From a virus (taxonomy: Duplodnaviria > Caudoviricetes), in IMG/VR virus record IMGVR_UViG_3300044267_005212, positions 1 through 26,147 of that record: a stretch of DNA of 26,147 nt; one strand, written 5' to 3'. Position numbers and translations under genes: made by a program. The notes below the pieces were generated by a model. It was not told the DNA's origin. It was given only the letters and a program-made list of their open reading frames with translations, and searched no databases. The first letter of the stretch is position 1; each line of letters begins with the position of its first letter. Positions 1,464 to 22,578 of the stretch are shown piece by piece.

Positions 1464-1501
1464 ATTTCGTATAGAATAAAATCAGTAAGAAAAAGGAGTA
1501 C

Positions 1502-2852: not shown

Positions 2853-2866
2853 AATAATAAAAATTA

Positions 2867-3454: not shown

Positions 3455-3531
3455 TTTTGTTTTTTAATTACCTTTTTGAGTATAACTAATTTTTTGAATT
3501 TGCAATAAAAAATATAATTTTTCTCCTATAC

Positions 3532-3565
3532 TTGACAGAGTAGATAACTTATATGTAATACATAT
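3532..3565 (+). promoter_or_regulatory. Putative promoter with overlapping palindromic operator upstream of the exonuclease
   Basis: TTGACA 3532-3537; weak -10 TGTAAT 3554-3559 lies inside the palindrome ATATGTA-A-TACATAT (3551-3565). Confidence 0.4.
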
Positions 3566-3572
3566 TGCTGTA

Positions 3573-4415: not shown

Positions 4416-4494
4416 AATCTAACCTTAATGTTTTGAATTATTTCATTTCGAATTATTCACACTAGGATAATAGAACACCCAAAAATAGCTTCCA

Positions 4495-4680
4495 ATGGAA
4501 ATAAAAGTTTCCGTTGGCGAGTGGATGAATACCCTTAAAACTCGTATGGAAAATGCGACAGATGGGGATTGTTTTCATTTGCCGACACAAATGCATCATC
4601 ACGCATTTACGCTATTAAAAGAAGACATGTTTCCAAATAGGAAATTTAATGTAATCATTTCTAACAATCAACATCAATGA
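4495..4680 (+). CDS. Hypothetical protein (61 aa), coupled to the primase
   Basis: ATGA overlap with the primase start at 4677. Confidence 0.7.
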   Translation: MEIKVSVGEWMNTLKTRMENATDGDCFHLPTQMHHHAFTLLKEDMFPNRKFNVIISNNQHQ

Positions 4681-7259: not shown

Positions 7260-7265
7260 TTATTT

Positions 7266-7319
7266 ATTACATTTTTTCTTTAATATATGTATATTTAAAT
7301 TAGAAAATAAAAATGTAAT
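7266..7319. repeat. Inverted repeat spanning the primase-glycosyltransferase intergenic region
   Basis: ATTACATTTTT (7266-7276) and AAAAATGTAAT (7309-7319) form a perfect 11-bp pair, with further imperfect pairing inside. Confidence 0.55.
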
Positions 7320-8571
7320 GCCAAAAAAACCTAAGCTTTTATGGTGTGGTGATATCGCTGCAAAAACTGGATTTGCTCGTGTAACAGAAAATGTTCTTCC
7401 TTATTTAAGTAAAAAATTTAACATTGTTGTTTTAGCTAATAATTGGTGGGGAGATCCTAATCCTCTTCAAAAAAAATATAAGATGTATCCTTCATCTAAT
7501 AGATTCCAAACAGCTCCTTTTGGAGAAAATAGGATTAGAGAAATAGTTCAAGCAGAAGCTCCTGATTTAGTATTTACTATTAATGATATGTGGATTATTA
7601 ATGAACAATACAGACAAATAAAAGATTTTCATAAAAAGAAAAAATTTAAATTTATTGGTTATTCTCCAATGGATTCTTATGGTTGGGTTGGTTGTTTGGA
7701 TGAAACAGCTAATGATTGGGATGGAGTCATTTCTTATACTCAATTTGGTGCTTACGAATTTATTCAAGGAGGAATCACTAAACCAATAGCTGTCATTCCT
7801 CATGGAGTAACACCAGGGCAATTTTATCCTGTTGATAAAAACAAAGCCAGAAAAGAATTGGGTTTAGATGAAAATTTATTTATTGTATTTAATGGAAATC
7901 GAAATCAATTCCGTAAACGTATAGATATAACAATTTCAGCTTTTGCAAAATTTGCAGTAGATAAACCAAATACAAAATTATATTTACATATGGGTAAAAA
8001 AGATCAAGGTTGGGATGTTATGCAACTATTTGAAAGAGAAATGAAAAGAAATAAACTTGATGCTAATAATCGAATAATATTAACTTCAAATTGTGATGGA
8101 CCTCCAAGTGTAGAACTTGAAACTTTAAATACTATTTATAATGCTGCTGATGTAGGTATTAACACATGTAAAGGCGAAGGTTGGGGTTTAGTCAGCTTTG
8201 AACAAGCAGCTTGCAAAATAGCTCAAGTTGTTCCAGGTCATACTTCTTGTAAAGAAATCTTTGAAGGTTATGGTCAATTAATTAGATGTGATCATATAGA
8301 TACTGATACAAATTATGGAAGAGAAATGCCTTGTCCTTCTACTGAACATCTAGTTGAAATACTTAATGATTTATATAAAAATCCAAAAAAACTAGAAGCT
8401 ACAGCTGAACTTTGTTATGAACGAGTATTAGAAAAACAATTTACTTGGGAAACAATTGGTTCTCAATTTGCAGGAGTATTTGAAGACACTATAAAAGGTG
8501 TAGATCATTCAATTAAAAAAGTTTCTCCAAAGAAAAAAATTCGTAAAAAGAGGAAAATAGGTAATGCTTAG
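7318..8571 (+). CDS. GT-B fold glycosyltransferase (GT4-like)
   Basis: TGFARV, IPHGV, RNQFRKRID, YNAADVGINTCKGEGWGLVSFEQAAC (EX7E motif), FTWETIG. Confidence 0.92.
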   Translation: MPKKPKLLWCGDIAAKTGFARVTENVLPYLSKKFNIVVLANNWWGDPNPLQKKYKMYPSSNRFQTAPFGENRIREIVQAEAPDLVFTINDMWIINEQYRQIKDFHKKKKFKFIGYSPMDSYGWVGCLDETANDWDGVISYTQFGAYEFIQGGITKPIAVIPHGVTPGQFYPVDKNKARKELGLDENLFIVFNGNRNQFRKRIDITISAFAKFAVDKPNTKLYLHMGKKDQGWDVMQLFEREMKRNKLDANNRIILTSNCDGPPSVELETLNTIYNAADVGINTCKGEGWGLVSFEQAACKIAQVVPGHTSCKEIFEGYGQLIRCDHIDTDTNYGREMPCPSTEHLVEILNDLYKNPKKLEATAELCYERVLEKQFTWETIGSQFAGVFEDTIKGVDHSIKKVSPKKKIRKKRKIGNA

Positions 8572-8923
8572 AAAAATTACTTTTCGTCCTTGGGGTTGGT
8601 GGCAAGCTTTATTCCAAGGACCTGGCTATCTTGCCAAAATTATTAATGTAAAAAAAGGACAACAACTTAGTCTTCAATATCATAACCATAGAAGTGAAAC
8701 TTGGATTATTGCATCAGGAGAAGGCGAAGTTTTTGCTAATGGTATATGGCAAATAGCTAGAACTGGTAAATGTATTCATATTCCTGTTAAAGGAACTCAT
8801 CGAATTAAAGCAGATAAAACAGACTTAGTTCTTATAGAAGTCCAGTTTGGGGAAAAAATTTCTGAAGACGACATTGTACGTATTAAAGATGATTACGGAC
8901 GTGTGCAGAAAAACCCAGAATGA
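8564..8923 (+). CDS. Cupin, mannose-6-phosphate isomerase type II (ManC C-terminal) domain
   Basis: RPWG, LSLQYHNHRSETW, IP..THRI, IEVQFG...EDDIVRIKDDYGR: the typical MannoseP_isomer signature. Confidence 0.92.
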   Translation: MLRKITFRPWGWWQALFQGPGYLAKIINVKKGQQLSLQYHNHRSETWIIASGEGEVFANGIWQIARTGKCIHIPVKGTHRIKADKTDLVLIEVQFGEKISEDDIVRIKDDYGRVQKNPE

Positions 8924-8932
8924 GTTATTTTT

Positions 8933-9051
8933 TTCTTAAGCATAGATTAAATTACATTTTCATTTCTTGTTTTTTAAAAAAATATTACATAACCAAGAAT
9001 AAAAGTGTAATTTAAACTAATATATAAGAAATTTTAAATTCATTCTTGGTT
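8933..9051. repeat. AT-rich intergenic region with interleaved inverted repeats (possible origin or operator)
   Basis: ~40-bp imperfect IR over 8933-9030 with core TAAATTACA(8948-8956)/TGTAATTTA(9006-9014); also AACCAAGAAT(8991-9000)/ATTCTTGGTT(9042-9051). Confidence 0.55.
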
Positions 9052-9058
9052 TCTTTGC

Positions 9059-9382
9059 ATGTCTCGTAATTACAAACCTATGCCAATGCTTTGGAGATTA
9101 GAAGAATTATTTGAATTATCTAATAAATATCCAAGTGGTTTAATTTGGCGAATTAAAAAAGCAGGAAATAAAAAAGGAGATCCTGTAGGAAAGAAAAATA
9201 TAAATACGGGTTACTATACTGTTTTTGTAGATAATGAATCTTACCAAGCTCATCGTATTGTTTATTATTTAAGAACTAAAGAATCTCCAGATAGACATGG
9301 TGTTCAACATCATTTTTCTAACCGAAATAAAGATAACAGACTAGAATTAAAACCTTCTTATTTTACAAATGTTAGATACTAA
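9059..9382 (+). CDS. HNH_3-type homing-endonuclease-like protein (possibly degenerate)
   Basis: SGLIW...G..VG...GYY.V...YQAHRIVYYL...P...VQH...NKDNR; ends shortly after, with no AP2 domain. Confidence 0.75.
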   Translation: MSRNYKPMPMLWRLEELFELSNKYPSGLIWRIKKAGNKKGDPVGKKNINTGYYTVFVDNESYQAHRIVYYLRTKESPDRHGVQHHFSNRNKDNRLELKPSYFTNVRY

Positions 9383-10019
9383 TTTTAGATATATTCATAA
9401 TATCGATAAGCTTTCTAAAGCTGAATTAGATCAAAAAAGATATTATATTGGTTTTCCATGTACACATGGTCATGTTATTAGAGATAAAAAAGAACATTGG
9501 TGTTATCACTGTGTAAAAAAAATTAAATCTAATATATGTGGTTTTGATATTAATTATTTACATACAGATTATAAAACTAAGTACCAAAGATTATGGAATA
9601 ACATTGATATTAAAAACTTTGATGAATGCTGGCAAGTTAATCTTCCAGGTAAAAGAGCACCTCATAGAGTTTGTTTTCCTTCATACCGTTCACAATATAC
9701 TTGTCAAAAATCAGAGAACACAACACCTCACAAAGTTATTTATAACTGTGCTTGGGGTGATATAGGTTCTAATTTTGTTACTCGTTTATGTAATAATCCT
9801 TGGTGTCTTAATCCTCTGCATATGATTTCTAAATGGAATCGTCAATCTTATCCAAAAAAAATTAAACCTTTTTCTATTAAATTTGAAGCAAAAAAATTAA
9901 TGAGGATAAGTAAAGCAAAATTATTAAGTAGGCAAAATGAAATAATAGAAGAAAAATATCAAAAAACTATTGAAAATCCTTTATATGTTAAAGATAGCCC
10001 CGATTATGATGAAGGATAA
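9369..10019 (+). CDS. His-Me finger (Zn-binding loop of homing endonuclease) protein with N-terminal Zn finger; catalytic His apparently replaced
   Basis: YYIGFPCTHGH...WCYHC; ECWQ; HKVIY...VTRLCNNPWCLNPLHM versus consensus VxHxCxNxxCxNPxHL. Confidence 0.75.
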   Translation: MLDTNFRYIHNIDKLSKAELDQKRYYIGFPCTHGHVIRDKKEHWCYHCVKKIKSNICGFDINYLHTDYKTKYQRLWNNIDIKNFDECWQVNLPGKRAPHRVCFPSYRSQYTCQKSENTTPHKVIYNCAWGDIGSNFVTRLCNNPWCLNPLHMISKWNRQSYPKKIKPFSIKFEAKKLMRISKAKLLSRQNEIIEEKYQKTIENPLYVKDSPDYDEG

Positions 10020-10039
10020 GATAATGTCCTAAAGTTATA

Positions 10040-10762
10040 ATGGCTAGAAATCAAGTTACTCAAAGACAAAGATCAGCTTCAGATCCTTTATTACTTGGTG
10101 ATTTCGATGAGACATCCATACGTTATTTAACTGGTGAATTAGGAGGAAAAAATAAACCTATTACAGGAGGGTATGGAGGAGGATCTCTTAATCATTGGTT
10201 TAAAATTAAACTTAAAACAGAAGCTTGGATAATATTAACAAAAGGAGGTGGTTGGGAAAAATGGTTTACAGTTTCAGCATATGATTTAAATAAAAATCCT
10301 ATTCAAGGAAGAGCTATTTTTGATCAAGATAGTATAAAAACAACATCAAATGGTGATGTATATACTCCATATGCTGGTACTATAATGGCTGCTGGATCTA
10401 ATTTATATAATAATTTTGATGCAAGACGTTTAGATAAAGGAGATTCTAGATATTATCCTTTAAAAATTGGTGAATATTTAATTTGTGTATCTAGTACTCT
10501 TAATATACCTTTTAATTATGCTTTAGGTATAGTTATAGAAATGGCTGATCCATTTCCTGTTTTATTGACTGAAGACTATGATCGTTTAATTTTTGAAAAT
10601 ACTCTTTCTCAAGACGATATTATTTGTGATACAAGTGCTACATATACTGGAGCTGAAGATCATGAACATTCATTAGGAGAATGGGAAACTGCATGGTCAA
10701 GAGAAAGACAAGCATATGAAAAATTTCCTTCTATTCTTATTCCATTAACAACTAAACCTTAA
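10040..10762 (+). CDS. Hypothetical protein with PPC-like beta-sandwich, possibly virion-associated
   Basis: HWFKIKL...AYD.N.NPI...YPLKIGEYLICVS...YALGI resembles the pre-peptidase C-terminal domain pattern; LLTEDYDRLIFE resembles the LLTEDG motif of phage structural proteins. Confidence 0.55.
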   Translation: MARNQVTQRQRSASDPLLLGDFDETSIRYLTGELGGKNKPITGGYGGGSLNHWFKIKLKTEAWIILTKGGGWEKWFTVSAYDLNKNPIQGRAIFDQDSIKTTSNGDVYTPYAGTIMAAGSNLYNNFDARRLDKGDSRYYPLKIGEYLICVSSTLNIPFNYALGIVIEMADPFPVLLTEDYDRLIFENTLSQDDIICDTSATYTGAEDHEHSLGEWETAWSRERQAYEKFPSILIPLTTKP

Positions 10763-10767
10763 TTAAT

Positions 10768-10923
10768 ATGGACTCTAATCTTTATACTAAAATACTTGAC
10801 GACCAATATGAAAATTGGAAAGATAATCATTTATCTATACAAGAACAAAATTTAACTGTTAAATTTAAAAGAGATGCTGAATTAATTCCTTATTTACAGC
10901 AATTTAAAATGTATGACTGTTAA
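10768..10923 (+). CDS. Small protein (51 aa) with degenerate CP12-like C-terminus (not in ORF track)
   Basis: MDSNLYTKILDDQYENWKDNHLSIQEQNLTVKFKRDAELIPYLQQFKMYDC; starts 5 nt after the upstream stop; TAATG overlap with the next gene. Confidence 0.65.
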   Translation: MDSNLYTKILDDQYENWKDNHLSIQEQNLTVKFKRDAELIPYLQQFKMYDC

Positions 10924-11351
10924 TGATGACTCTAAGAACTGCTCGGAACAAGAAATTAGCGACGACGCGTATTGGAAAACATATTTTGAAGATGAGACTA
11001 TTTCCATGGCTACGTACAAAAAGCGGTTACGTTTGGCTCGCAAGCATGGCAATAAGCAAAAGCAACAGACAACTCAACGATTGGACAACTCTAAAAAAAA
11101 ATCGTCGGGTCCGCCTATTGAATTTATCTATGACAGGTAAGTTTGGACCTAAAACTCAAGCAATTGCTATCCGCCAGGTTCGTGATTGGATGAAAGAAAT
11201 TCCTATCGGTGATTCAATAAGTTTACGTTGTGAATCATGTTTACCAGAAAAACAATTTAAAATTTGGAAAAAATGGTTTTTAAAAAATGAAAGTAATGAA
11301 TGGGAAATTAATGATGAATTAAAATGTTTCTTTTATTTTAGAGAAGCTTAA
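10923..11351 (+). CDS. Hypothetical basic, Trp-rich protein (142 aa)
   Basis: Coupled start (TAATG); its stop overlaps the stop of the convergent gene. Confidence 0.75.
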   Translation: MMTLRTARNKKLATTRIGKHILKMRLFPWLRTKSGYVWLASMAISKSNRQLNDWTTLKKNRRVRLLNLSMTGKFGPKTQAIAIRQVRDWMKEIPIGDSISLRCESCLPEKQFKIWKKWFLKNESNEWEINDELKCFFYFREA

Positions 11352-11538: not shown

Positions 11539-11997
11539 ATGGTAGAAAAGAAAAATGTGGAAACCCTAGAGGAAAAAAAGGATGAAAAGAAAAAAAATGT
11601 ACTTGAAAAAGTAAAAGATGCAATACTTCCAGATCAAGAAGAACAAGCTGAAATCATTAGTACATTTGTACGCCTTGGAGTGTTGATTTGGTCGGGCGGA
11701 ATATTGACATTAAATTACGTTTCTATCCCAGGAATACCCTCCCAGAAAATTGATCCAACATTCATAGCTTCAGTGTTCACGGGGGTTTTGGCTGGATTTG
11801 GCATTCAGACAGCGAGTAAAAAAGGCGATGGAACTATGAAAATGAATGGTGAAAATGGACAAGTAAGTAAGAAAGATATGGAAGAAATGATAACAAGAGC
11901 TGCTGCTAATTCTGCTGTACAAACTATAAGAATTGAACAGGCTCCTTTAGTAATTAAGGCAGAAACACCTAGTAAAGATTCTAACTACCAGATGTAA
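11539..11997 (+). CDS. Two-TM membrane protein of cyanophage type (holin-like topology, function unknown)
   Basis: FVRLGVLIWSGGILTLNY and IDPTFIASVFTGVLAGFGI hydrophobic segments with highly charged termini. Confidence 0.75.
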   Translation: MVEKKNVETLEEKKDEKKKNVLEKVKDAILPDQEEQAEIISTFVRLGVLIWSGGILTLNYVSIPGIPSQKIDPTFIASVFTGVLAGFGIQTASKKGDGTMKMNGENGQVSKKDMEEMITRAAANSAVQTIRIEQAPLVIKAETPSKDSNYQM

Positions 11998-12030
11998 AAT
12001 TAAAGAGGAAATAACTAAGGAGGTTTTCTT

Positions 12031-12171
12031 ATGAACAGTCCACTTTATGTTCCTAATTGGCAGTATCATTCGAAAAAAAATATAACATTAGATTTTATAA
12101 AAGAAGAAAATATGCTCCGTAGAGCGTTACATCGTGGAAAGACAATATTAAAAAAAATAAGACGAATGTAA
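12031..12171 (+). CDS. Small basic cyanophage-type protein (46 aa; not in ORF track)
   Basis: Strong SD AAGGAGG 12017-12023; MNSPLYVPNWQYHSKK...LRRALHRGKTILKKIRRM. The PNWQxHSKK motif is recalled from cyanophage small ORFs. Confidence 0.75.
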   Translation: MNSPLYVPNWQYHSKKNITLDFIKEENMLRRALHRGKTILKKIRRM

Positions 12172-12204
12172 TTGTTATTGTTAACAAGGTATGCATTTAA
12201 TTAA

Positions 12205-12369
12205 ATGATTAAACATTATCTTGTTACTTATCATGATTCTCAAAATGATAATCATGATTTATGTACATATGCAGAAAGTTGCTGGGATGCTGAACATGTC
12301 GCAATAGAAGATGATTCTTATTTACATGAGCATCCTCATGCAATTACATCTATTATTAAAGAAGATTAA
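12205..12369 (+). CDS. Small acidic His-rich protein (54 aa; not in ORF track)
   Basis: MIKHYLVTYHDSQNDNHDLCTYAESCWDAEHVAIEDDSYLHEHPHAITSIIKED; resembles recalled picocyanobacterial/cyanophage small proteins (HY.V.YHD...C.YA...ED..YL.EHPH.I). Confidence 0.75.
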   Translation: MIKHYLVTYHDSQNDNHDLCTYAESCWDAEHVAIEDDSYLHEHPHAITSIIKED

Positions 12370-12378
12370 ATATTAAAA

Positions 12379-12603
12379 ATGACTGAACCATTAGATCATG
12401 CTCGTGACTTTGCTGTAGATGCTTCACAAGAAACACGTTTAGTAGTTCAAGCTTTAAAAATAGAAAGATTAGAAGAAAAACAAGAAGAATTACGTGAACG
12501 TCTTAAAGTTGTAGAAAAATGGGTAATCGGTGCTGCTGCAGTTCTTGCAGCTGGTGTAACATTAATAGGATTTGCAACCAATATTTCTAAAGCCTATTTA
12601 TAA
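12379..12603 (+). CDS. Coiled-coil protein with C-terminal TM helix (XhlA/holin-like architecture)
   Basis: IERLEEKQEELRERLKVVEKW followed by hydrophobic VIGAAAVLAAGVTLIGFA. Confidence 0.7.
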   Translation: MTEPLDHARDFAVDASQETRLVVQALKIERLEEKQEELRERLKVVEKWVIGAAAVLAAGVTLIGFATNISKAYL

Positions 12604-12663
12604 ATATGTCACTTTAAAATAAAAACTTATATTGATAGACTATTAGAAACGATATATAACTTA

Positions 12664-13176
12664 ATGAAATTATTTATAACTTTTTTCTTGTTTTTATTTG
12701 CTCCTATTTCAGTCAAAGCAGATTTAATTCATTCATTAGCTAGTTCAACTCAATTAACTGTTTCAGGAGCTGCGACTGTTAGTGAAAGAATCGGTTCAAC
12801 TTACGTTGTAACAGGCACAAACGTCCAAGTTGGTTCAGGTAATAGCGATGTATTTGGAGGTTTAACAGCTGGTAGTGCAACAGCAGCGGCAACCATGAAA
12901 GCTGGAACATACGATATTGACAACGACGGTCAAGCCTTCAGTTTCAGCGAAACCTGGACTCAAGGAGACGCTATTCCTGCCATAGGTTCAGGCGTGGATG
13001 TTGCCAGTGGAAGTGTCGCAGACATGCCAGCTTTTGGAAAAGTTACGACCCAAGCGGGAGGCCATGCTGGGAATCTTGCAGGTACAATCGATTCACAATC
13101 TTTGATTGGAATAACTGCTGGAGGCAGTGGCACTACGGCTATTGGACAATTTGTGAGTACTATTACCGTAGATTGA
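12664..13176 (+). CDS. Sec-exported Gly/Ala/Ser/Thr-rich beta protein (170 aa)
   Basis: Signal peptide MKLFITFFLFLFAPISVKA|D; Cys-free beta-rich mature part ending in strand GQFVSTITVD. Confidence 0.85.
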   Translation: MKLFITFFLFLFAPISVKADLIHSLASSTQLTVSGAATVSERIGSTYVVTGTNVQVGSGNSDVFGGLTAGSATAAATMKAGTYDIDNDGQAFSFSETWTQGDAIPAIGSGVDVASGSVADMPAFGKVTTQAGGHAGNLAGTIDSQSLIGITAGGSGTTAIGQFVSTITVD

Positions 13177-13180
13177 AGTC

Positions 13181-13606
13181 ATGAAGCGGTTTTTACTGCT
13201 GTTTTTGTTATATCCATCTCCTTTATTTGCTGTTCCCGTCACGCCAAATTTTCAAAGTGGAAGTATGACTTCTCATACGGAAACAATAAGTAAAGTAGCA
13301 GAAACAATTAACGTGATTGAATATCAAACTGGTTGGCAAATGACAGTTACAGGTAATAATATAAATACAGATGCTCCTAGTCTTTTACCTCCCGCAAGCT
13401 CTAGTACTCAAAATCTTAATAATGTAACTACAACTTGGACTGGATTAGATGCTAATAGTATGCCTAATTTCACAGTAGTAGATCCAACACAAGCATGGCA
13501 ATTTACTTCTACTCTTTCCCAACCAGGGATGAAATCTCAGACAATAATAACTCGTACTACCGACATAACGTCAGTGACAGACACCGTTTCAACCTTCAGT
13601 CAATAA
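13181..13606 (+). CDS. Sec-exported Thr-rich beta protein (141 aa)
   Basis: Signal peptide MKRFLLLFLLYPSPLFA|VPVTPNF; long terminal beta-strands (TSHTETISKVAETIN; TIITRTTDITSVTDTVSTFSQ). Confidence 0.85.
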   Translation: MKRFLLLFLLYPSPLFAVPVTPNFQSGSMTSHTETISKVAETINVIEYQTGWQMTVTGNNINTDAPSLLPPASSSTQNLNNVTTTWTGLDANSMPNFTVVDPTQAWQFTSTLSQPGMKSQTIITRTTDITSVTDTVSTFSQ

Positions 13607-14460
13607 AATATTTTTTATTAGTTTTAATTAATTTTTTTCTATTAATTCCACAAAGTACTCGTGCAGAAAGTGTTGGTGGAGTTAGTGCTTCTGCTGCTCC
13701 TGTTGCTAATTCATCTGGATCAGTAACAAATCAAGCTATTCAGGTTTTGCAAGGTCCATATATAACTAATACTTATGGAAGTGGAGTGTCGTGTCAGGGT
13801 CCTACGCTAAATGTCACACCGTTCGTAACTGGAAGTAATTCTTGGAAAGATCCTTATGAAAGTTCATATGATTCTCCTGTCTATGACATGACAACAGATG
13901 ATGATGGAAATTTAAATAATCCAGGTTCAATTTTATATCATGTTCCTAATAGAACAGGACAAAAAGCAAATAATAATATCTCATTAGGTTTAAGTGCAAC
14001 TATATCTATTCCATTAGATAAACGTCATCATGAGGGTTGCTTAAGAGCTGCATCTACACAGACAAAATTAACGCAACAAATATTAGCTAATAAACGATTA
14101 GACTTTGAATTTGCAAGACTTAAACATTGTGCTGAGCAAAAAAGACTTGGAGTATCCTTCCATCCTTCCAGCTCCTCTTTCAAGATTTGTCAAGATATTG
14201 TTGTTACTAACCCCCATGGAGTTATACCACAACATCAACACTCTATTTCTTCGCCTTCTTCTTCTTCAGAGGAGGTAAATCTTTCTTCTGACGATACTGA
14301 TTTGCAACAATCTCAGAACGACTTATCTTCTCTGGATTCTTCCCAAGCAGTTTCTGAAGCTTCTTCATTGAAGTCTTTATCAGAGGCTTTATCGCCTTCA
14401 GAATCACGTCAGCCAGGGGCTTTGCTAGGACTGCCGATGTCGTTGCCACAAGAGCAATAG
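13603..14460 (+). CDS. Sec-exported protein with amphipathic beta-hairpin and helices; probable ATA start at 13603 (track start 13495)
   Basis: Starting at ATA 13603 gives signal peptide MKYFLLVLINFFLLIPQSTRA|E; strands TLNVTPFVTGS and ISLGLSATISIPL, then helices; 4 Cys. The Ser-rich tail lies antisense to the next gene. Confidence 0.8.
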   Translation: MKYFLLVLINFFLLIPQSTRAESVGGVSASAAPVANSSGSVTNQAIQVLQGPYITNTYGSGVSCQGPTLNVTPFVTGSNSWKDPYESSYDSPVYDMTTDDDGNLNNPGSILYHVPNRTGQKANNNISLGLSATISIPLDKRHHEGCLRAASTQTKLTQQILANKRLDFEFARLKHCAEQKRLGVSFHPSSSSFKICQDIVVTNPHGVIPQHQHSISSPSSSSEEVNLSSDDTDLQQSQNDLSSLDSSQAVSEASSLKSLSEALSPSESRQPGALLGLPMSLPQEQ

Positions 14461-15028
14461 ATGCTGTTGCTGTAACTGCTCCAGCAGTAGGTAATGCATC
14501 TATAACTTGTTCAACAATAGGAATTTCATCGTAAAGAGTTATACAACGACCATTTTTTAATTCATAACCACTTATTTCTTTATTACCTTCAACTTTAGAA
14601 CCGACTATAGGAGCGTCATTTGGGGGACAAATTATTTTAGCCGTATTTACTGGAGGTAAATTTTTAATATTATTTTCAAATGGTTCATTTTTATCTAAAG
14701 GAACAAAAGGTATTTCAGCAGGTTTAGTTTCTAAAAAATCTCTAGCTGTATAGTTCATTGGATCATAACTAGGCATCGTTGCATCACATAAAACACGATT
14801 GCCTCTTTCGTCTTCATTAACTAATTCATTAGATTCTTTATTTGAAATATTATATTTAACACAACCAGGTAATTCAATAATAGGAGAACCTATTTGTAAA
14901 GTTACAGGCGGTGCTTGTGGAAGACTATTATTAGTATTAATTTTTTGAATATTATAATTAAAAATTTTTTCTTTATTAATATTTATATTTTCAATATTAT
15001 TAACATCAATTTCATTAATTAAAGACAT
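14243..15028 (-). CDS. Pro-rich protein with C-terminal TM helix and basic tail (261 aa)
   Basis: PPVTLQIGSPIIELPGCV...LCDATMPSYDPMNY, 4 Cys, hydrophobic AVTATASIALVATTSAVLA, Lys-rich end. Confidence 0.85.
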   Translation of the reverse strand: MSLINEIDVNNIENININKEKIFNYNIQKINTNNSLPQAPPVTLQIGSPIIELPGCVKYNISNKESNELVNEDERGNRVLCDATMPSYDPMNYTARDFLETKPAEIPFVPLDKNEPFENNIKNLPPVNTAKIICPPNDAPIVGSKVEGNKEISGYELKNGRCITLYDEIPIVEQVIDALPTAGAVTATASIALVATTSAVLAKPLADVILKAIKPLIKTSMKKLQKLLGKNPEKISRSEIVANQYRQKKDLPPLKKKKAKK

Positions 15029-15273
15029 TAAAAATTAGGTATTCCAAAACCTGCACCAGGGACAACAGGACCTGTTTCTGTAGGTAAAGCAGGAGTTGAA
15101 GGAAGCATATCTTTAACTGCATTACCAGCAAGAGAACTTACTTCTTTCATTATTTTTTCTTTAGCAGATTCAATTATTGAATCCTTATTCGCATATATAA
15201 GAATACCAGTCCCAACAACGGAAGTAGATACAACAAAAGACGCAATAGAAAGTACATTAATTATTTTTTGCAT
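15028..15273 (-). CDS. Small N-terminally anchored membrane protein (81 aa)
   Basis: MQKIINVLSIASFVVSTSVVGTGILIY TM segment, amphipathic helix, Pro-rich tail; TAATG coupling to the 261-aa gene. Confidence 0.8.
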   Translation of the reverse strand: MQKIINVLSIASFVVSTSVVGTGILIYANKDSIIESAKEKIMKEVSSLAGNAVKDMLPSTPALPTETGPVVPGAGFGIPNF

Positions 15274-15317: not shown

Positions 15318-18300
15318 TTATGCTTTCTTTAATTGTTTAACTTCTTTTGATAATTCTTGAATTGCTTTTACAAGGATTGGCACAAGCTTGCCATAAGAAG
15401 CTTCAAGTCTATCTGGATTTTCATCCATAACAAGACCTAAATAATCAGCATCATTATCCTTTTGTACTTGTTGAAAATCTTGTGCTATAAATCCTGCTTC
15501 GTAAGAACCATCTTTTCCGTTACCATCTCTTGTCTCCCATTTGAATTTAACAGGAGAAAGAGAATCAATAAAATCTAATCCTAAATTTAAACTATTGATA
15601 TCTGTTTTATCACGTCTATCAGATAGTGAACTAATAGTTTGTACATTACAACGTAAAGTTGCTATTGAGTTATTACCTAAGGTTATTTCATTAGAAACTG
15701 TGACTGCACTTGGAGTTGCATAATTACCAAGACAAGTATTATTTGATCCTGTTGTTAAAGTATCTCCTGCATATAAACCAATACCTACATTATGGTTTCC
15801 TGTCGTACCACAACCTGCATTTTGACCTATTGCTACACCACCTGTATTTGTTGTAGCTGAATCTCCTGCAAATACACCAATATAAACGCTTTCTACTGCA
15901 GTTGTTGCGGCTGCTCCTGCGCTATCTCCTATACCAATATTTGCATAGCCACTTGTGATTGCATAATCTTTATGATTTTGACTTCCAATAAATATTCCAT
16001 TATCTCCTGAATAAGTAGCTGTACCATTTAAAGCTCCACATGCTATAAAATTATAATCTCCAGCAACAAGATTATTACCTGTCCAATTCGATATAGCTAC
16101 ACCTCCCAAAATTACATTATTTGTACCTGTCGTAATTGAATCTCCTGATCTATGTCCTATTGCTACATTTCCATCACTTTCACAATTAAGTAAACTCTTA
16201 TAACCAATAGCTATATTAGTATTTCCCACTGAAGGATCAGATAAACTGTTGGTACCAATAGCAATGTTATAACTAGATGTTGTACCTTGATCTAAAGCTG
16301 TATTACCAAAAGCTATATTACTTATACCAGTAGTGATACTTCTTCCTGCATATCTACCAAAAAACGAATTGCTATCTCCTGTAGTAATATCTTCACCAGC
16401 CATATTACCAAAAAGAGTAAGGCTATCAGCTGTTGTTGCTCTTTTTCCAGCGGAATAACCAACAGCAGTACATTCAGAAGCATCAGTCAAAGCTTGTAAA
16501 GCTTCATGACCAATAGCTACAGTAGACCAAACTCCAATATAATTAGTTAATGTTTCTGTTCCTATAGCTATAGTTCCAAAGGTATTATCATTGCTATAAA
16601 AAGCTTTATAACCAATAGCTATATTATTATTTCTAGTTGTTTGAGTATATCCTGCTTGAACACCAATTAATATATTTTTATCTCCACTAGTAGTATTTCT
16701 TCCTGCTTGATAACCTAAACCAATATTATTATCTCCAGTAGTTAAATCTTCATAAGAATTAGCACCAACTACTACATTAGTCTCACATGTTGTTCCTGCA
16801 GTAGCAACACCATGACCTATTAAAACATTTGATCCTGCTGTAGTAGTACCAGTAGGATCTCTAAAAATAGAATTTCCTATTAAAATATTAGTACTCATAT
16901 TGACACCATTCCATCCCGTTTCAAAACCTATTGCAATATTAGAAGCAGAATTATTTGCAATTCTAGTTAACGCACCTTCACCAATACCTATATTAAATGT
17001 TCCTGAACTTGTTAAAATTCCACTAGACATTGCATTATAACCAATAGCTATATTTCGTTGTCCTCCAGTAGAACCCGTTAAAGCTCTATATCCTATTGCT
17101 ACATTTCCATATCCAGTAGTTTGTGAATCTAAACTTTCATGACCTATAGCAACAGATTGAGTAGCCGTAGTAGCTGAACCCATAGAGTTATAACCAATAG
17201 CTACATTTTTTTCACCAGTTGTAAGAAAATCTAAAACTAAAGAACCAAAACCAGTATTATAATCACCAATTGTTATAGATGTACCTGCATCTTTTCCAAA
17301 TAATGTATTATCTATTGCATTAGTACTAGTAAAACTAGCTCCTGCACCACTTCCACCTAATGTATTATTTTGAGCATCAGATGAAGCTGAAGTAACAATA
17401 GCCCATCCTGCATCTCCATTATTATCAACTGTCAAAACGTAGTTAGGAGTTGCAGTTGAATCTTTAATATTAAAATTAAGACCTGGAATTCTGAATTTTG
17501 TAATAGAAGAATTACCTAAAGTTATTTCATTAGAAACTGTTGCTGCACTCGCATCTGAATTATTACCAATACAAATATTATTACTACCTGTTGTTATTGA
17601 ATCACCAGCTAAATAACCTAATGCTGTATTTAAACCTGCAGTTGTATTAGCATTTAAAGCTTTCATCCCAACTGCTGTATTTCCAGAACCTGTAGTTGTA
17701 TAACGTAATGCTTCTTTACCAACAGCAACATGAGAATCTCCTGTTGTGTTCATCTGTAATGATTCAACTCCTACAGCTACATTATGACTAGCTGTTGTAT
17801 TTGCTCCTAAAGCATCTTTTCCTATAGCAACAAGTTCATATCCAGTATTATTTGCATCTAAAGTTAGTTCACCTATAGCAGTATTAGAATGTCCAGTTGT
17901 ATTAGTAGTTAAAGCTCGTGAACCAATAGCTTGGTTAAAGCTACCTGAAGTATTAGCATATAATGTTTTATAACCTATGCCATGATTACTATCACCTGTA
18001 TTAGTAGAATATACAGCTTCTTCTCCAATAGCTATATTATTATTACCAGAAGTATTATTTGCTAAAGCGTGATAACCAAAAGCACATCCACCATCACCAG
18101 TAATATTTGCATTTAAAGCATTTGAACCAAATGCAACATTATCGGAACCACTAGTATTATTTTTAAGAGCTTGACATCCAAAAGCAGTATTATCATCTCC
18201 AGCATTAATTGATTTACCAGTATCTTTTCCAAATAAAGTATTTCTATGAGTATCAGTATCAAGATCTAAACCAGCATTAGTACCTGCTACTGTATTCTCT

Positions 18301-18833
18301 CTAGCATCACTAATTATATTTGCAGTTGCTTCACTCCAAGATAGTACACCATTTGCATTACTAACTAATGCATAACCAGAAGTAGCAGCATCTGCAGAAG
18401 GTAATGTCCAAACAATATTATTACTAACAGTACTAGGTGATTGAAAACCTACATAATGAGATCCATCTCCATCTTTTAATCTAATATCAGCTGGAAATGC
18501 AAAATCACCACTATTAGCAATAGCAGAAGGTTTTACAGTTCCATCACTAGGACTTCCTATTGCATAAGAATCTCCTAAAGAAAGAGCAAAAAAAGCAGTT
18601 CCATTTGCTGGAGCACTTGCAAAAGTAATACTAGAACCTGAAACATTGTAATCAGTTTCAGGTTTCTTAATAACATTTCCTAAAGAAACAAGTAAATTCC
18701 TTGCACTTCCTGGTGAAAAAGCTGTTGTGTTATCTGTTAAAGCAAAGGTAGTAGTACTACCGTTAAAACCACTGGAAATATCGTCGCAAAGACTATATTT
18801 TCCTACTATAGGAGACTGTCCTAAATATGCCAT
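15318..18833 (-). CDS. Long tail fibre with ~14-aa beta-roll repeats and C-terminal intramolecular chaperone (peptidase S74)
   Basis: N-terminal MAYLG..P...DDISSGFNGSTTTFAL...ITFASAP attachment domain; dozens of NxAxGxxAL...TTG repeats; C-terminal S|DRRDK...LSPVKFKW...GFIAQD...YGKLVPILVKAIQELS (about 15623-15318). Confidence 0.92.
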   Translation of the reverse strand: MAYLGQSPIVGKYSLCDDISSGFNGSTTTFALTDNTTAFSPGSARNLLVSLGNVIKKPETDYNVSGSSITFASAPANGTAFFALSLGDSYAIGSPSDGTVKPSAIANSGDFAFPADIRLKDGDGSHYVGFQSPSTVSNNIVWTLPSADAATSGYALVSNANGVLSWSEATANIISDARENTVAGTNAGLDLDTDTHRNTLFGKDTGKSINAGDDNTAFGCQALKNNTSGSDNVAFGSNALNANITGDGGCAFGYHALANNTSGNNNIAIGEEAVYSTNTGDSNHGIGYKTLYANTSGSFNQAIGSRALTTNTTGHSNTAIGELTLDANNTGYELVAIGKDALGANTTASHNVAVGVESLQMNTTGDSHVAVGKEALRYTTTGSGNTAVGMKALNANTTAGLNTALGYLAGDSITTGSNNICIGNNSDASAATVSNEITLGNSSITKFRIPGLNFNIKDSTATPNYVLTVDNNGDAGWAIVTSASSDAQNNTLGGSGAGASFTSTNAIDNTLFGKDAGTSITIGDYNTGFGSLVLDFLTTGEKNVAIGYNSMGSATTATQSVAIGHESLDSQTTGYGNVAIGYRALTGSTGGQRNIAIGYNAMSSGILTSSGTFNIGIGEGALTRIANNSASNIAIGFETGWNGVNMSTNILIGNSIFRDPTGTTTAGSNVLIGHGVATAGTTCETNVVVGANSYEDLTTGDNNIGLGYQAGRNTTSGDKNILIGVQAGYTQTTRNNNIAIGYKAFYSNDNTFGTIAIGTETLTNYIGVWSTVAIGHEALQALTDASECTAVGYSAGKRATTADSLTLFGNMAGEDITTGDSNSFFGRYAGRSITTGISNIAFGNTALDQGTTSSYNIAIGTNSLSDPSVGNTNIAIGYKSLLNCESDGNVAIGHRSGDSITTGTNNVILGGVAISNWTGNNLVAGDYNFIACGALNGTATYSGDNGIFIGSQNHKDYAITSGYANIGIGDSAGAAATTAVESVYIGVFAGDSATTNTGGVAIGQNAGCGTTGNHNVGIGLYAGDTLTTGSNNTCLGNYATPSAVTVSNEITLGNNSIATLRCNVQTISSLSDRRDKTDINSLNLGLDFIDSLSPVKFKWETRDGNGKDGSYEAGFIAQDFQQVQKDNDADYLGLVMDENPDRLEASYGKLVPILVKAIQELSKEVKQLKKA
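17511..17543. repeat. 33-bp direct repeat shared between fibre genes (copies at 22756-22788 and 15672-15701)
   Basis: ATTACCTAAAGTTATTTCATTAGAAACTGTTGC is identical at 17511 and 22756; 29/30 match at 15672; encodes ATVSNEITLGN. Confidence 0.85.
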
Positions 18834-18892
18834 TTAGCCTACAAAACTTATTATTCTATCTTAATTTTAGTATTACTTGACTTCGGAATTAA

Positions 18893-19123
18893 TTAGCCTT
18901 CTTTCACTTCTGTATTTATATCTCTAATTTCTTTTAACTCATTTATCGCTCTATTTAATCCAATAGCTTGTTGTTCACAGACAATAGCTTTTTGTCTTAA
19001 TTCATTTTGCCTTTCATTTAAGGTATTACTCTCTTCTACTATTTTTTTATATTCTGTTTGTACAGTTTCTAATTCTTTTCCTAAACTTTCTAGTTTTGCA
19101 GTGCAAAGGTCTTCGTGTGCCAT
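18893..19123 (-). CDS. Small coiled-coil protein (possible fibre chaperone)
   Basis: Heptad-rich and charged; lies between fibre genes. Confidence 0.7.
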   Translation of the reverse strand: MAHEDLCTAKLESLGKELETVQTEYKKIVEESNTLNERQNELRQKAIVCEQQAIGLNRAINELKEIRDINTEVKEG

Positions 19124-19154
19124 TGTTTTTGTGTAACTTTACTAAGTATAGTCT

Positions 19155-19403
19155 TTAATACTTAGATTTACCAAGAGTAACAGCTGCATCTTGAGCAGTA
19201 AAGTCTTCACTAGTCCAAATGCTAGTGGTACCATCTTCTTTTTTGTATGCTTTTATAATTTCAAGATGATCTACATTTCTTTTTAATGTATCCTTGTCTT
19301 CATCTGTAATTGTAGATTGACCAGCAACACTATTTATAAGAGTAACACTATCACCAGCAGCAGAGAAAATCTTTGCTACTTCGTCTGCAGTTCTTTCAGC
19401 CAT
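19155..19403 (-). CDS. Small helical protein associated with fibre genes (possible assembly chaperone)
   Basis: A.GDSV.LIN...RNVDHLEII...WT.EDFT...AA motif; function inferred from context only. Confidence 0.7.
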   Translation of the reverse strand: MAERTADEVAKIFSAAGDSVTLINSVAGQSTITDEDKDTLKRNVDHLEIIKAYKKEDGTTSIWTSEDFTAQDAAVTLGKSKY

Positions 19404-19442
19404 GACAAAATTAATATTTATATATAAATTTTAGCACTACTT

Positions 19443-19742
19443 TTATGAAGTTTTCCATGTTCCATTTACATTTACAGGTACATTAGATGCTGCTTTCCAT
19501 GTTCCATTTACATTTATATGTACTGTAGCTTGTTTCCATGTACCGTTTACATTGATCCAAACTGTAGTTGTACTTCCACCCCCTCCTCCACCTGAGTTTG
19601 AATTAATAGCAATAGGAGTACTCCAATCAACTATATCTAAACTTTTACTATCAACTGTTGATGTAGCATCAATATTTGCAAGAGGAAGACTCCAATCAAC
19701 TATATCTAAACCTAAAATTTCAGTACTTGTAGGTAATGCCAT
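19443..19742 (-). CDS. Small repeat-built tail adaptor-like protein (99 aa)
   Basis: 2x LDIVDWSxP, poly-Gly linker, 3x (I/V)NVNGTWK. Confidence 0.75.
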   Translation of the reverse strand: MALPTSTEILGLDIVDWSLPLANIDATSTVDSKSLDIVDWSTPIAINSNSGGGGGGSTTTVWINVNGTWKQATVHINVNGTWKAASNVPVNVNGTWKTS

Positions 19743-19957
19743 TAACTTAAATTTGCCTCCTCATCAAGTTTTCTTTGTTTTTCATTTTCTTCTATTTCTT
19801 TTTCATTAGCTAAAAGTTCATCTATAAGAGGTTTAATATCTTCTAACGTTTTTTCTTCTGAAGAAGTATATCTAATCCATCTTTCATCATTTATTTTAAC
19901 CATATAAAGAAAATCTCCTGTAACTGATTTATCTGTTGCAGTAATTGAATAAGTCAT
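19742..19957 (-). CDS. Hypothetical protein (71 aa)
   Basis: Starts 4 nt after the RBP stop; TAATG coupling to the 99-aa gene. Confidence 0.7.
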   Translation of the reverse strand: MTYSITATDKSVTGDFLYMVKINDERWIRYTSSEEKTLEDIKPLIDELLANEKEIEENEKQRKLDEEANLS

Positions 19958-19961
19958 AATT

Positions 19962-22547
19962 TTAAGCTTGTGTAATAGTCATATCATCAAAATAGACATG
20001 ACTGGCACCACCACCATAAGCATCTAAACTAACATCTACATAACCATCAGCAGTTGGTGTAAAAGAAGATGTTAATTGTTCCCATGCTCCATGAGAACTT
20101 GAAACTGCACTTTGTTCAGTTAAACCCATTGTAGGATTTGTATCAAGAATTAATTTTCCTTTACCTGCACTTGTACCAGGATAAACCCAAACTCCAATTG
20201 TTACTTGGCTTCCCGATTTAACTGCAAATTTTCCAAACTTTGTTTTCATGCTTCCTACTAAAGCATTTCCACCACTTCCTGTCATATAAAAATCCCATGA
20301 AAAACCAGAAGCTGTATGTCTTGTTGTTGTATTGTTAGTAATTGTTCCATATTTATATACTGTTTCATGTGCTCCACTTACATTATTTGCATTTCTTCTA
20401 TACCATTGTCCTGAACTTAAATTCATAGGAGTACTTGCATAAGTTCCTGTGACTTGATCATTTTGTGTGTAAAATTCTGCACCATCATTTTTAAGTTGTC
20501 TATTAGGTAATGAAAGTGCATTTATTTTTGCTGGTCCATTATAAAGAAAAGTACATGTAGCACTAAGACTATAATAATTTTCTGGTTTTGTAGGTGCAGC
20601 AGCATCTTGTGTATATGTCAAACTATTAATTGTTATTAATCCTGGTTCACGTTTATAAAGAATACCAGCAGCATGATTATTTAAAATAGCAGTATTAATT
20701 GTTACTGGTGTTTTTTGATAACTATAAATCCCTAATTCATAAGATGAACATTCATAATGATCAATATATAAAGCATTAGACTCTACACTCATATTTGAAC
20801 CAAAATTAATTCCTCTTGATTGTGTGTAACCACAACCTCTGACTACTATTTTTCCAAAATATCCGTTTTCTATTTTTTGTGTAAAAGTTACTCCATTATA
20901 AGCAGATGGTTGTGTTACATATATTTGATAATCATTTTTACCTGCTTCATTTGCAACACTAGGACTTGATACAGCTTCATTTTTATAAAAACTACATTGA
21001 TAAAAATAAACAGGACTTTGAGCAAGATATGCAATACATTTTCTTAAAGAAGAATAGTATGGATAAAATACTGATCCATCCATTCTACTTCCCGACATAT
21101 ATACATGATCTAATGATAAATAATTACAATGAGACCATTTCCATTCGTATGATCGAACAATGCCAAATTTTTCGAAATTACACCAATTACAGCTACTATG
21201 GTTAAAGGTAGTTCTTCTTGTTACTAAATCTAAAAAAGTCGCATTTAAACTTTGCGAACTCATATCTGTAGTATTCCATCCTCCAGAAAATGTAAATTGA
21301 TTATCATATGTCCCTGATTTACTAGTAATATCAGACCAAGTAGTTGTAGATGTATTACTATTATTTAATTCTTTAGGAATTATACATTCTCTTTTATAAA
21401 TATTTGTTCCATCAAAATCATTAGAAAAACCTACATTATAACCTGGAGAATAATAACCCCAATCACTTGAACTTGCTTGTTGTCTACCTTCTAAAATAAT
21501 TCTTTTTTCATTAATGGATTGAATTCCAAACCATGTTGGATCAGCAGTTGTATTTAATCCAATAACTGAACTATGTGTTAATGAATCTGCTGAAGAAGAA
21601 GCTTTACAAGCAATAATATTAGACAACCAAAATTTTTGTTCTCCTTGATCTGTATCTACATATAAAGCAATTGATTGAATAGAACTATTTAAATTAGTAC
21701 CTAAATCTACTGTAATTCGCGACCAAGCTTGATAATTATGTTCACTAATATCAAGTGGAATTGTATGAACAGAAGTTGCACCTGCATTATCAGTACATAA
21801 ACGTAAAGAACAATTATTTCCCCAATGTTGACTACTAAGGTTACATAAAAGCATTAAGGAAATTTGTTGATATCCAGAAAGATCTAATGTTCCTGTAGCC
21901 CAATATGCAGCCTTACCTGTTCCAAAACCTGCAGCAATATGAACTTCATCACTATAATAATGTTCATTATATGCTGCTTCAGAATTATTCCATGCAAAAT
22001 TAGAAGATGTTATTAACTGTGTTGTTACATCTGTAGATGCTGTCCATGTCGTTGTCCTATGTCCAGTAGATGCTACATTTTTTGTAACTGCTGTATCTAA
22101 TAAAATTCTACGACCATTAGCAGGTGTAATTTTTCCACCACTACCTGTTGTTGCACTCTGAGCTGTATATCCATTTAATTTTATATTGCCATCATCAACT
22201 CGTGTTACTTCCCAAGTACCATTAATATATTGATTATCAGTATTGTCAATAATTTGAACAGTATCTCCTGTAAATACTTTTTTACCAAAACCACCAATCG
22301 CAAGGTTAGTCTCACCTTCTGTTGTGCTATACGTAATGGTGCTTATACTATTTCCTTGATACATCCACCAACCCCATCCTCTTCTTGCTTTTCCAGTACC
22401 AACTAAAGTTGGATCAGGAGAACCCATTATTCTTACAGTATCACCTGCAGAAACACTTAAACCGTTTACTTTACTTCTTCGATTAGCAAAACTTGTTCCA
22501 TCTCCAGATGAATCACCATTTTTATAATCAACGTAATGTATCGCCAT
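19962..22547 (-). CDS. Putative receptor-binding/tailspike-like protein: right-handed beta-helix with carbohydrate-binding-module-like domains (861 aa)
   Basis: HYVD...GD...DGTS...AGDTVRI beta-helix cap; LDLSGYQQISL...WSRITVDL...IQSIALY...WLSNI (CBM-like insert); C-terminal VTIGVWV...WEQLTSSFT...VYFDD (CBM4/9-like). Confidence 0.75.
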   Translation of the reverse strand: MAIHYVDYKNGDSSGDGTSFANRRSKVNGLSVSAGDTVRIMGSPDPTLVGTGKARRGWGWWMYQGNSISTITYSTTEGETNLAIGGFGKKVFTGDTVQIIDNTDNQYINGTWEVTRVDDGNIKLNGYTAQSATTGSGGKITPANGRRILLDTAVTKNVASTGHRTTTWTASTDVTTQLITSSNFAWNNSEAAYNEHYYSDEVHIAAGFGTGKAAYWATGTLDLSGYQQISLMLLCNLSSQHWGNNCSLRLCTDNAGATSVHTIPLDISEHNYQAWSRITVDLGTNLNSSIQSIALYVDTDQGEQKFWLSNIIACKASSSADSLTHSSVIGLNTTADPTWFGIQSINEKRIILEGRQQASSSDWGYYSPGYNVGFSNDFDGTNIYKRECIIPKELNNSNTSTTTWSDITSKSGTYDNQFTFSGGWNTTDMSSQSLNATFLDLVTRRTTFNHSSCNWCNFEKFGIVRSYEWKWSHCNYLSLDHVYMSGSRMDGSVFYPYYSSLRKCIAYLAQSPVYFYQCSFYKNEAVSSPSVANEAGKNDYQIYVTQPSAYNGVTFTQKIENGYFGKIVVRGCGYTQSRGINFGSNMSVESNALYIDHYECSSYELGIYSYQKTPVTINTAILNNHAAGILYKREPGLITINSLTYTQDAAAPTKPENYYSLSATCTFLYNGPAKINALSLPNRQLKNDGAEFYTQNDQVTGTYASTPMNLSSGQWYRRNANNVSGAHETVYKYGTITNNTTTRHTASGFSWDFYMTGSGGNALVGSMKTKFGKFAVKSGSQVTIGVWVYPGTSAGKGKLILDTNPTMGLTEQSAVSSSHGAWEQLTSSFTPTADGYVDVSLDAYGGGASHVYFDDMTITQA

Positions 22548-22578
22548 TTATTTTAATTTTATTTATATTAATTATAGT

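Follow-up and report, generated by a model that had tools for sequence, protein, structure and literature searches.

The subject of this report is a cluster of small genes at positions 11539–15273 of a 26,147-base IMG/VR virus fragment (IMGVR_UViG_3300044267_005212; estimated completeness 33%), hereafter the window. These genes belong to a known but functionally uncharacterised cyanophage cassette, and our analysis supports a co-inherited, envelope-targeted cyanophage module. We propose, with a probability of roughly 0.45, that the cassette forms a late trans-envelope assembly which substitutes for spanins by disrupting the outer membrane at lysis; the available part of Kongari 2018 predicts the architecture of such a spanin replacement. 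The function in lysis is the weakest step of this proposal. Among the three functions that an earlier note had offered for the region (an outer-membrane pore exporting self-assembling subunits, a shield against superinfection or grazing, and a spanin substitute), the last has the most circumstantial support.

The features concerned, with lengths in amino acids (aa), are the following:

11539–11997, + strand: DUF6450 protein (phrog_2714, T4-GC218); 152-aa membrane protein with two hydrophobic segments, sixth cassette member, outside the coordinates of the earlier note
12379–12603, + strand: open reading frame (ORF) of 74 aa with a charged, probably helical N-terminal half and a C-terminal hydrophobic segment
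12664–13176, + strand: gene i (phrog_564, T4-GC237); 170 aa, no Cys, signal peptide 1–19
13181–13606, + strand: gene ii (phrog_650, DUF6322, T4-GC236, gp166); 141 aa, Thr-rich, signal peptide 1–17
13495–13606, + strand: dual-coding overlap of ii and iii; likely start of iii and its 36-residue overprinted N-terminal extension
13495–14460, + strand: gene iii (phrog_848/1755, T4-GC235, 'gp165'); 321 aa, four invariant Cys
14243–15028, − strand: gene iv (phrog_570, T4-GC234, gp164); 261 aa, acidic Pro-rich N-domain with four Cys
15028–15273, − strand: gene v (phrog_568, 'plasmid stability', T4-GC414); 81 aa, N-terminal transmembrane (TM) segment

Composition and distribution of the cassette

The five reading frames i–v are not chance ORFs, because all of them match large PHROG families over their full conserved length (E 1e-23 to 1e-102). 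Their sole Pfam match is DUF6322 for ii, an NCBIfam scan gave nothing above a cut-off, and the gene i family carries the label 'OMP1 protein' in some GenBank records. The earlier note had the lengths of i, ii, iv and v right, along with the Cys-free composition of i, the Thr-rich composition of ii and the coupling of v and iv, which runs through a TAATG stop/start. Its module of five genes at 12664–15273 is indeed co-inherited, but incomplete: the DUF6450 gene, whose product matches the T4-GC218 gene of P-SSM4, belongs to it too. Cassette membership of the 74-aa ORF is uncertain, as it adjoins gene i in some relatives only and is placed elsewhere in G009; we would liken its product to XhlA-type lysis helpers. 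The convergent genes iii and iv overlap by 218 nucleotides (nt; 14243–14460), with the Ser-rich tail of iii antisense to the TM segment and basic tail of iv. The sequence of iii is non-conserved after about 14238, its last ~70 residues overlap iv, and the length of this tail differs widely among relatives.

Among 50,697 phage records, 421 matched iii, 381 matched i and 405 matched iv, and every match is named Synechococcus, Prochlorococcus, Cyanophage, Marine or uncultured; for iii, there are 7,309 matching clusters at 90% identity. The cassette is present in T4-like, T7-like and S-EIV1-like phages, with myo-, podo- and other morphotypes. Linkage was surveyed in 181 distinct viral loci, retrieved with i, ii, iii or a lineage gene. 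Genes ii and i were found in all 138 loci having 1.5 kb upstream, iv in 142 of the 143 having 1.5 kb downstream (140 convergent), and v in 63 of the 73 having 4 kb downstream. When at least 4 kb was available on both sides, all six genes were present in 28 of 32 loci and DUF6450 in 29, in line with the clustering in cyanophages that the earlier note had mentioned. The rank correlation of pairwise identities is 0.76 between ii and iii, and 0.11–0.29 between i and the other five genes.

T7-like podoviruses carry a divergent iii and define a smaller core. In P-SSP7, S-TIP37 and 9515-10a, an iv-like gene followed by DUF6450, ii and iii lies between the tail-fibre genes and the small terminase, and i and v were not found in these three genomes. 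The iv-like protein is short and Pro-rich, with a C-terminal TM segment and a basic tail; its match to the iv profile has E 1e-5 in S-TIP37 and E 0.002 in P-SSP7, and in 9515-10a it is iv-like by anatomy only.

Outside phage records, a scan of 185,579 prokaryote genomes returned 11 loci, 9 of which carry further phage or cassette genes beyond i–v (L096 and L098 are too short to classify as phage), and the ii profile matched in 1 of 401 cyanobacterial genomes, on a 189-kb phage-sized contig. These 'cellular' matches look like phage contigs in single-cell or metagenome bins. One of the loci, L095, is a 188-kb contig of a Nonlabens assembly that carries the cassette together with T4-like gp43, hsp20, regA and gp62, and is probably a cyanomyovirus genome within a bacterial assembly.

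The window phage itself is assigned to the S-EIV1-like and not to the T4-like cyanophages, because it shares 60% primase identity with Synechococcus phage S-EIV1, its gene order from 455 to 11351 is collinear with S-EIV1, and it is syntenic with G005, a complete relative of 84.5 kb that encodes psbA. Its GC content near 32% suggests Prochlorococcus as the host. All 27 loci of this lineage have DUF6450 in the slot before the tail fibres, and the 20 that extend far enough all have gene i there as well.

Several neighbouring genes deserve mention. A GT1 glycosyltransferase followed by a mannose-6-phosphate-isomerase-like cupin (7318–8923, + strand) forms a pair kept in the lineage. Beyond v lie three large tail/fibre-like genes of 1171, 861 and 820 aa (15318–25041, − strand), the first with a C-terminal S74 chaperone; PHROG and Pfam scans of the 861-aa protein gave no match. 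In a sister clade (L001:6628–7221; L269, L271, L272), DUF6450 is followed by T4-GC219 (phrog_605), which is hydrophobic at its N-terminus and in a Gly-rich C-terminal segment. Finally, another putative exported protein, the 123-aa phrog_417, whose N-terminus is signal-like, is encoded in G005 (L275:8911–9279), in G009 and, immediately next to v, in an uncultured podovirus (L004:7529–7894).

Probable start of gene iii within gene ii

The earlier note gave iii about 285 aa, which does not hold: the codon at 13603 is ATA, and no ATG, GTG or TTG lies between it and the signal peptide of iii. The frame is open from the ATG at 13495, inside ii and 112 nt before its end. Gene iii thus most likely begins at this ATG, with a predicted product of 321 aa. 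The start is built from an A-ending codon and a Trp codon of ii, an arrangement that recurs among relatives. Genes ii and iii are adjacent in 180 of the 182 non-redundant loci carrying both, and 173 of these 180 have a start codon for iii within ii (ATG in 159), mainly at −112, −166/−172 or −292 to −319 relative to the end of ii; the Trp codon of ii contributes to it in 172 of 173. Within the last 111 nt of ii, T-ending codons that would create a stop number 15 in 1,008 sites versus 304 expected, while upstream of the iii start stop-creating codons in the iii frame number 908 versus 827 expected, the sites in these counts being non-independent, as relatives share them. We judge that the ii/iii overlap is under selection, the iii frame being kept open in relatives. 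By eye, a GGAG-like run precedes the −166/−172 starts, and none precedes the −112 class to which the window belongs.

In L032 and L169, where an extra gene separates ii from iii, and in the uncultured podovirus L004, iii starts at an ATG of its own. The N-terminal extension is for this reason predicted to be dispensable, with the signal peptide as the putative working N-terminus. An ATA start at 13603 was ruled out, as it leaves the open upstream frame unexplained, and a frameshift fusion of ii and iii is unlikely, since the frame closes shortly upstream of the Trp-derived start and own starts return when iii is separated.

The overlap is relevant to the annotation of cyanophage genomes. In GenBank, ii is unannotated in 9515-10a (L002:5561–5938), iii is truncated in P-SSP7 (L290:5616–6236) and S-TIP37 (L292:38974–40285), and the DUF6450 and iv-like frames of S-TIP37 are unannotated. 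Cloning from the truncated iii starts would therefore lose the signal peptide.

Predicted architecture of the proteins

Genes i, ii and iii are predicted to encode proteins exported through Sec. By a hydropathy-plus-basic-residue heuristic, the N-terminus is signal-like in all 36 aligned sequences of i and in 31 of the 32 aligned for ii, and AxA-type cleavage sites are conserved, in agreement with the signal peptides of the earlier note. An hhalign comparison that included the signal peptides identifies i and ii as paralogues (probability 96.7, E 3.5e-10); neither has internal repeats. The AlphaFold model of mature i (88 sequences; predicted local distance difference test, pLDDT, 74; predicted template modelling score, pTM, 0.47) displays long paired strands at 2–14 and 138–150 plus a small head. 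Among the 14 strongest covarying pairs of ii, four (16–118, 22–112, 28–106 and 33–102; each weak, z 3.7–4.2) share one antiparallel register, which extends over about 20 residues of the Thr-rich N- and C-terminal strands. Both proteins are predicted to form long two-strand ribbons.

In iii, cleavage is predicted before E58 (13666), ahead of a near-invariant segment (13666–13755) that opens a conserved mature domain of ~190 aa. Two amphipathic strands, at about 13801–13830 and 13972–14013, flank a variable loop that measures about 15 residues in podoviruses and can exceed 100; the second runs into the GLSATISIPLD motif, which lies at 13987–14019 exactly as first noticed, and is followed by a 42-residue helix (about 14020–14145). 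The model of mature iii (91 sequences, pLDDT 77, pTM 0.47) shows a long hairpin at 47–116, one helix at 119–160 and a low-confidence N-terminus (1–22). The earlier picture of an amphipathic hairpin followed by helices and four Cys is hence partly retained: the hairpin is modelled, but it is followed by a single helix and by three Cys (182, 212 and 232), the fourth, Cys100, preceding it. Two disulphides are predicted to hold the long helix. Strand 103–117 alternates L/V/F/A/W with S/G/T in the fashion of a membrane strand, and the near-invariant N-terminus, given its conservation and low model confidence, suggests a segment that folds on a partner.

The models support hairpins of the kind found in oligomeric barrels. 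Neither model has a Foldseek match at E≤0.001. The best rows (E 0.2 and TM-score 0.20 for iii, E 1.8 for i) and all others are non-significant, and most of the leading ones are single long hairpins from oligomeric barrels. Single-chain modelling has therefore yielded long barrel-type hairpins in i and iii but no significant fold match. A sequence search of the PDB gave no match for iii and two for i at E≥1.9. Matches of ii to designed WD40 repeat proteins (E 1e-7) were rejected, as no stretch passes alone, leaving no true relatives of the three proteins found in the PDB, and the ESM Atlas returned only unnamed or DUF6322 viral clusters. Inter-protein covariation over 177–187 paired rows was dominated by a few lineage-marking columns.

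The N-domain of iv (n=43) spans ~177 aa, is acidic (median −10) and 15% Pro, and has four Cys in 38 of 43 sequences. No N-terminal signal was found in these 43 sequences (top 10-residue hydropathy 1.8). Of the C-terminal TM segment and basic tail claimed before, the tail is clear, being amphipathic with a median charge of +12, but the TM segment (residues about 183–204) is weak, at a median Kyte-Doolittle value of 1.1. The positive-inside rule predicts the orientation of inner-membrane proteins, and because of its basic tail iv is predicted to be an inner-membrane protein with N-out/C-in topology. Protein v, with an N-terminal TM segment, an amphipathic helix and a Pro-rich tail, is predicted to sit N-in in the inner membrane.

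Proposed role in lysis, alternatives and known systems

Mechanistically, many copies of iii would form an outer-membrane beta-barrel with a periplasmic helical collar, taking the role of an o-spanin, and ii, plus i where present, would extend or line this barrel. Protein iv, helped by v, would tie it to the inner membrane in the role of an i-spanin, while the DUF6450 protein may time the event in the manner of a holin. Once a separate lysozyme had removed the wall, the assembly would rupture or fuse the outer membrane. With its two hydrophobic segments, the DUF6450 protein is a holin-like candidate; it has no holin family match in PHROGs, Pfam or NCBIfam.

We take the position of the cassette in P-SSP7, S-TIP37 and 9515-10a to be the slot of the T7 holin, by T7 gene order. 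P-SSP7 lacks recognisable T7 3.5, 17.5 and 18.5 (PMC1079782), and its genes 29–51, covering g42–45, are late according to the available part of PMC7885011, citing Lindell 2007. In the freshwater phage S-EIV1, the slot before the tail fibres holds a glucosaminidase/C39 endolysin-family gene, which has no match in any of the 27 window-lineage loci. G005 encodes a lysozyme without a signal, and 75 of its 95 ORFs of at least 85 aa were scanned with no holin or spanin PHROG found. In keeping with the earlier note, the proteins are not listed in published virion proteomes: T4-GC218, 234–237 and 414 have an empty proteomics column in the available part of the Sullivan 2010 virion table (PMC3037559), which pools S-SM1, Syn9 and S-PM2; S-PM2 lacks the genes, so two phages are informative.

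Late expression is favoured by TAAATA, the T4 late-promoter core, which 98 of 159 relatives carry in the 70 nt upstream of i. A scan of the window gave 15 promoters versus 17.8 expected and 2 terminators versus 1.6. The element TATATAACT, found upstream of both i and v (3 matches versus 0.9 expected, 6/100 shuffles), was rejected; TATATAA is non-conserved among relatives (7/159 and 3/116), which rules against TATATAACT as a shared element. As a separate observation, TATAAATA occurs in 15 copies in the whole window versus 6.3 expected (0/100 shuffles), despite the phage not being T4-like. Four RNA runs with word shares of 0.05–0.14 all proved to be contigs, mostly 90–95% alike, and show neither transcription nor a start site. 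No functional study of the cassette genes was found in the open-access PubMed Central and bioRxiv literature. DUF7936 (phrog_7802), labelled 'lysozyme' in S-EIV1, has no lysozyme domain and follows the tail-fibre genes in several cyanophages (L086:2654–2962; L002:4529–4840; L276:5138–5473).

A number of observations weigh against a function in lysis. The TAAATA count concerns an AT-rich motif and was made without a shuffle control, and the linkage counts are partly pre-selected, since the loci were found with i, ii or iii. Of five phage records searched for iii and DUF6450, P-SSP7 was positive and S-PM2, S-CRM01, Syn5 and S-EIV1 gave no match; Syn5 and S-EIV1 lack any of the six genes, and S-PM2 is blank in all six T4-GC rows in the available part of the Sullivan 2010 table (PMC3037559). 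S-PM2 and Syn5, which infect marine Synechococcus, stand on the spanin-less list in the available part of Kongari 2018, so lysis is possible without cassette and without spanins, both phages being lytic; that source also offers the alternative that these outer membranes need no spanin. The S-EIV1 slot gene is a wall hydrolase, which the cassette could not replace chemically, and a separate lysozyme is kept by both S-EIV1 and G005. A glucosaminidase was detected in S-SCSM1 virions, according to the available part of PMC9602691, and the shared slot of S-EIV1 and the window may be just a variable late region. Lipoprotein, spanin, holin and hydrolase families gave no match in PHROGs, Pfam or NCBIfam, and the fold evidence is limited by the Foldseek null and the pTM of 0.47 for both i and iii. 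A set of six genes, with long beta-ribbons and a variable outer loop, resembles a fusogen less than it does a lasting structure; such a beta-rich, six-part design suits a durable channel at least as well.

These last points lead to the possible, though less probable, alternative that the phage builds a trans-envelope channel or a surface structure for use while the infected cell is alive, serving nutrient or ion uptake, export, superinfection exclusion or as a grazing shield. The long ribbons and the amphipathic hairpin fit it, as do the weak Foldseek rows, mostly stable oligomeric barrel subunits (flagellar L-ring, phage lower collars, pore stems), and the iii loop of about 15 to over 100 residues with its DxDxDG-like motif, a type associated with calcium binding. 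Phages without the cassette still lyse, and the latent period is 1 h in Syn5, without it, versus 8 h in P-SSP7, with it. On the other hand, late timing and a place among morphogenesis genes fit the end of infection, exclusion and nutrient genes being usually early or middle, and there is no host homologue, in contrast to most metabolic takeover genes.

Secretion of the curli or Fap kind, in which iii would be a pore, i and ii exported extracellular fibre subunits, and iv and v an anchor, is improbable. Three exported proteins per operon, two of them paralogous, nearly Cys-free and G/A/S/T-rich, would suit it, as would the freer divergence of i relative to the other cassette genes. However, there is no CsgA/B/F/G or Fap family match and there are no repeats, the i model is a terminal strand pair with a small head instead of a beta-solenoid, and three T7-like podoviruses keep the remainder of the cassette with i not found. 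No support was found for the fibre exported through a pore that the earlier note had pictured.

More improbable still is that the proteins are tail or ejection components present at low copy in the virion and overlooked by proteomics, or that the cassette is mobile and has no joint function: tail-fibre genes are neighbours, the weak Foldseek rows include the phi29 and Andhra collars, and mobility was suggested from the plasmid stability protein in the available part of Sullivan 2010 (PMC3037559) and repeated in that of PMC9602691, but signal peptides and TM segments are conserved, no protein has a proteomic flag, i, ii and iii have no true PDB sequence relative, the cassette spans myo-, podo- and other morphotypes, v has no plasmid-stability match in Pfam or NCBIfam, and the ii/iii overlap is under selection.

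A major carbon flux runs through the lysis of Prochlorococcus and Synechococcus by viruses. Of the 91 spanin-less phages in the available part of PMC6139136, 20 are cyanophages, which makes theirs the largest host group. The cassette supplies named lysis candidates in model phages (P-SSP7 g42–45; S-TIP37 gp46–48 plus unannotated frames), so that the lysis proposal is testable by deletion. In its strongest form, which we consider rather unlikely, at least three unrelated marine cyanophage lineages would build a new hetero-oligomeric iii/ii/i beta-barrel tube that iv and v anchor in the inner membrane and that has neither a lipoprotein nor any known fold, and would burst a large part of the oceanic Prochlorococcus and Synechococcus biomass with it; such a tube, if real, would be categorically new. 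If the function is not lysis, the cassette would still be a near-core, phage-only envelope machine with a fold without known match.

The cassette is not a member of the spanin, TolC or curli families. Like lambda Rz/Rz1, T7 18.5/18.7 and T1 gp11, the cassette has probably late genes with overlapping frames, and a predicted inner-membrane anchor with a Pro-rich, Cys-containing periplasmic part and a proposed outer-membrane partner. Unlike them, it has no lipoprotein, its outer-membrane contact would be a beta-hairpin, it numbers 4–6 genes versus 1–2, and iv is N-out/C-in without a signal. No Rz, Rz1 or spanin family matched in PHROGs, Pfam or NCBIfam. The lipobox Cys of an o-spanin is absent: i and ii are free of Cys, the cleavage site of iii has no Cys nearby, and G005 yields no lipobox by regular expression. 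Protein v fits the outline of an i-spanin (N-in TM segment) but has ~55 periplasmic residues and is missing in three T7-like podoviruses, while the topology of iv is reversed; as for a u-spanin such as T1 gp11, iv has a C-terminal TM segment and no N-terminal hydrophobic signal. The spanin anatomy compared here comes in part from PMC6139136.

Kinship with TolC/OEP (PF02321), raised in the earlier note, was not borne out. Protein iii resembles these channels in an amphipathic beta-hairpin that ends in Pro-Leu before a long helix, but is a single hairpin-helix unit, without the two hairpin-helix repeats per chain or pre-hairpin helices, and has disulphides; Pfam gave no PF02321 match at E≤0.01, and no TolC-family chain is among the best 49 of 383 Foldseek rows for iii. 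FlgH of the L-ring, the phi29 and Andhra lower collars and beta-pore stems share one long hairpin per subunit with i and iii, a non-significant likeness of shape and not of homology. As in curli (CsgA/B/E/F/G), small beta-rich proteins destined for export are encoded in one operon together with a candidate pore; unlike curli, the cassette has no family match, repeats or lipoprotein pore, and has inner-membrane partners. Neither a repeat amyloid subunit nor a CsgG/FapF pore appeared in the family scans, the i model or Foldseek. As to plasmid stability proteins (StbA/B, Par), v has no nuclease, ATPase or DNA-binding domain, and its label comes from PHROG only.

The closest known system is the cyanomyovirus cluster T4-GC218/219/234/235/237 plus a 'plasmid stability' gene in the available part of Sullivan 2010 (PMC3037559), with the same families and usually the same convergent layout; orthologues of T4-GC218, 234, 235, 236, 237 and 414 are present here in synteny. 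That part of the source gives no function, topology or overlap for the cluster and does not extend it to podoviruses. Our analysis adds the four-gene core defined through podoviruses and the corrected start of iii. Unlike the cyanomyovirus cluster, the cassette of the window belongs to an S-EIV1-like, non-T4 phage of about 80 kb, the near-identical locus L249 has no T4-GC219 match, and in this lineage the cassette occupies a slot exchanged against an endolysin.

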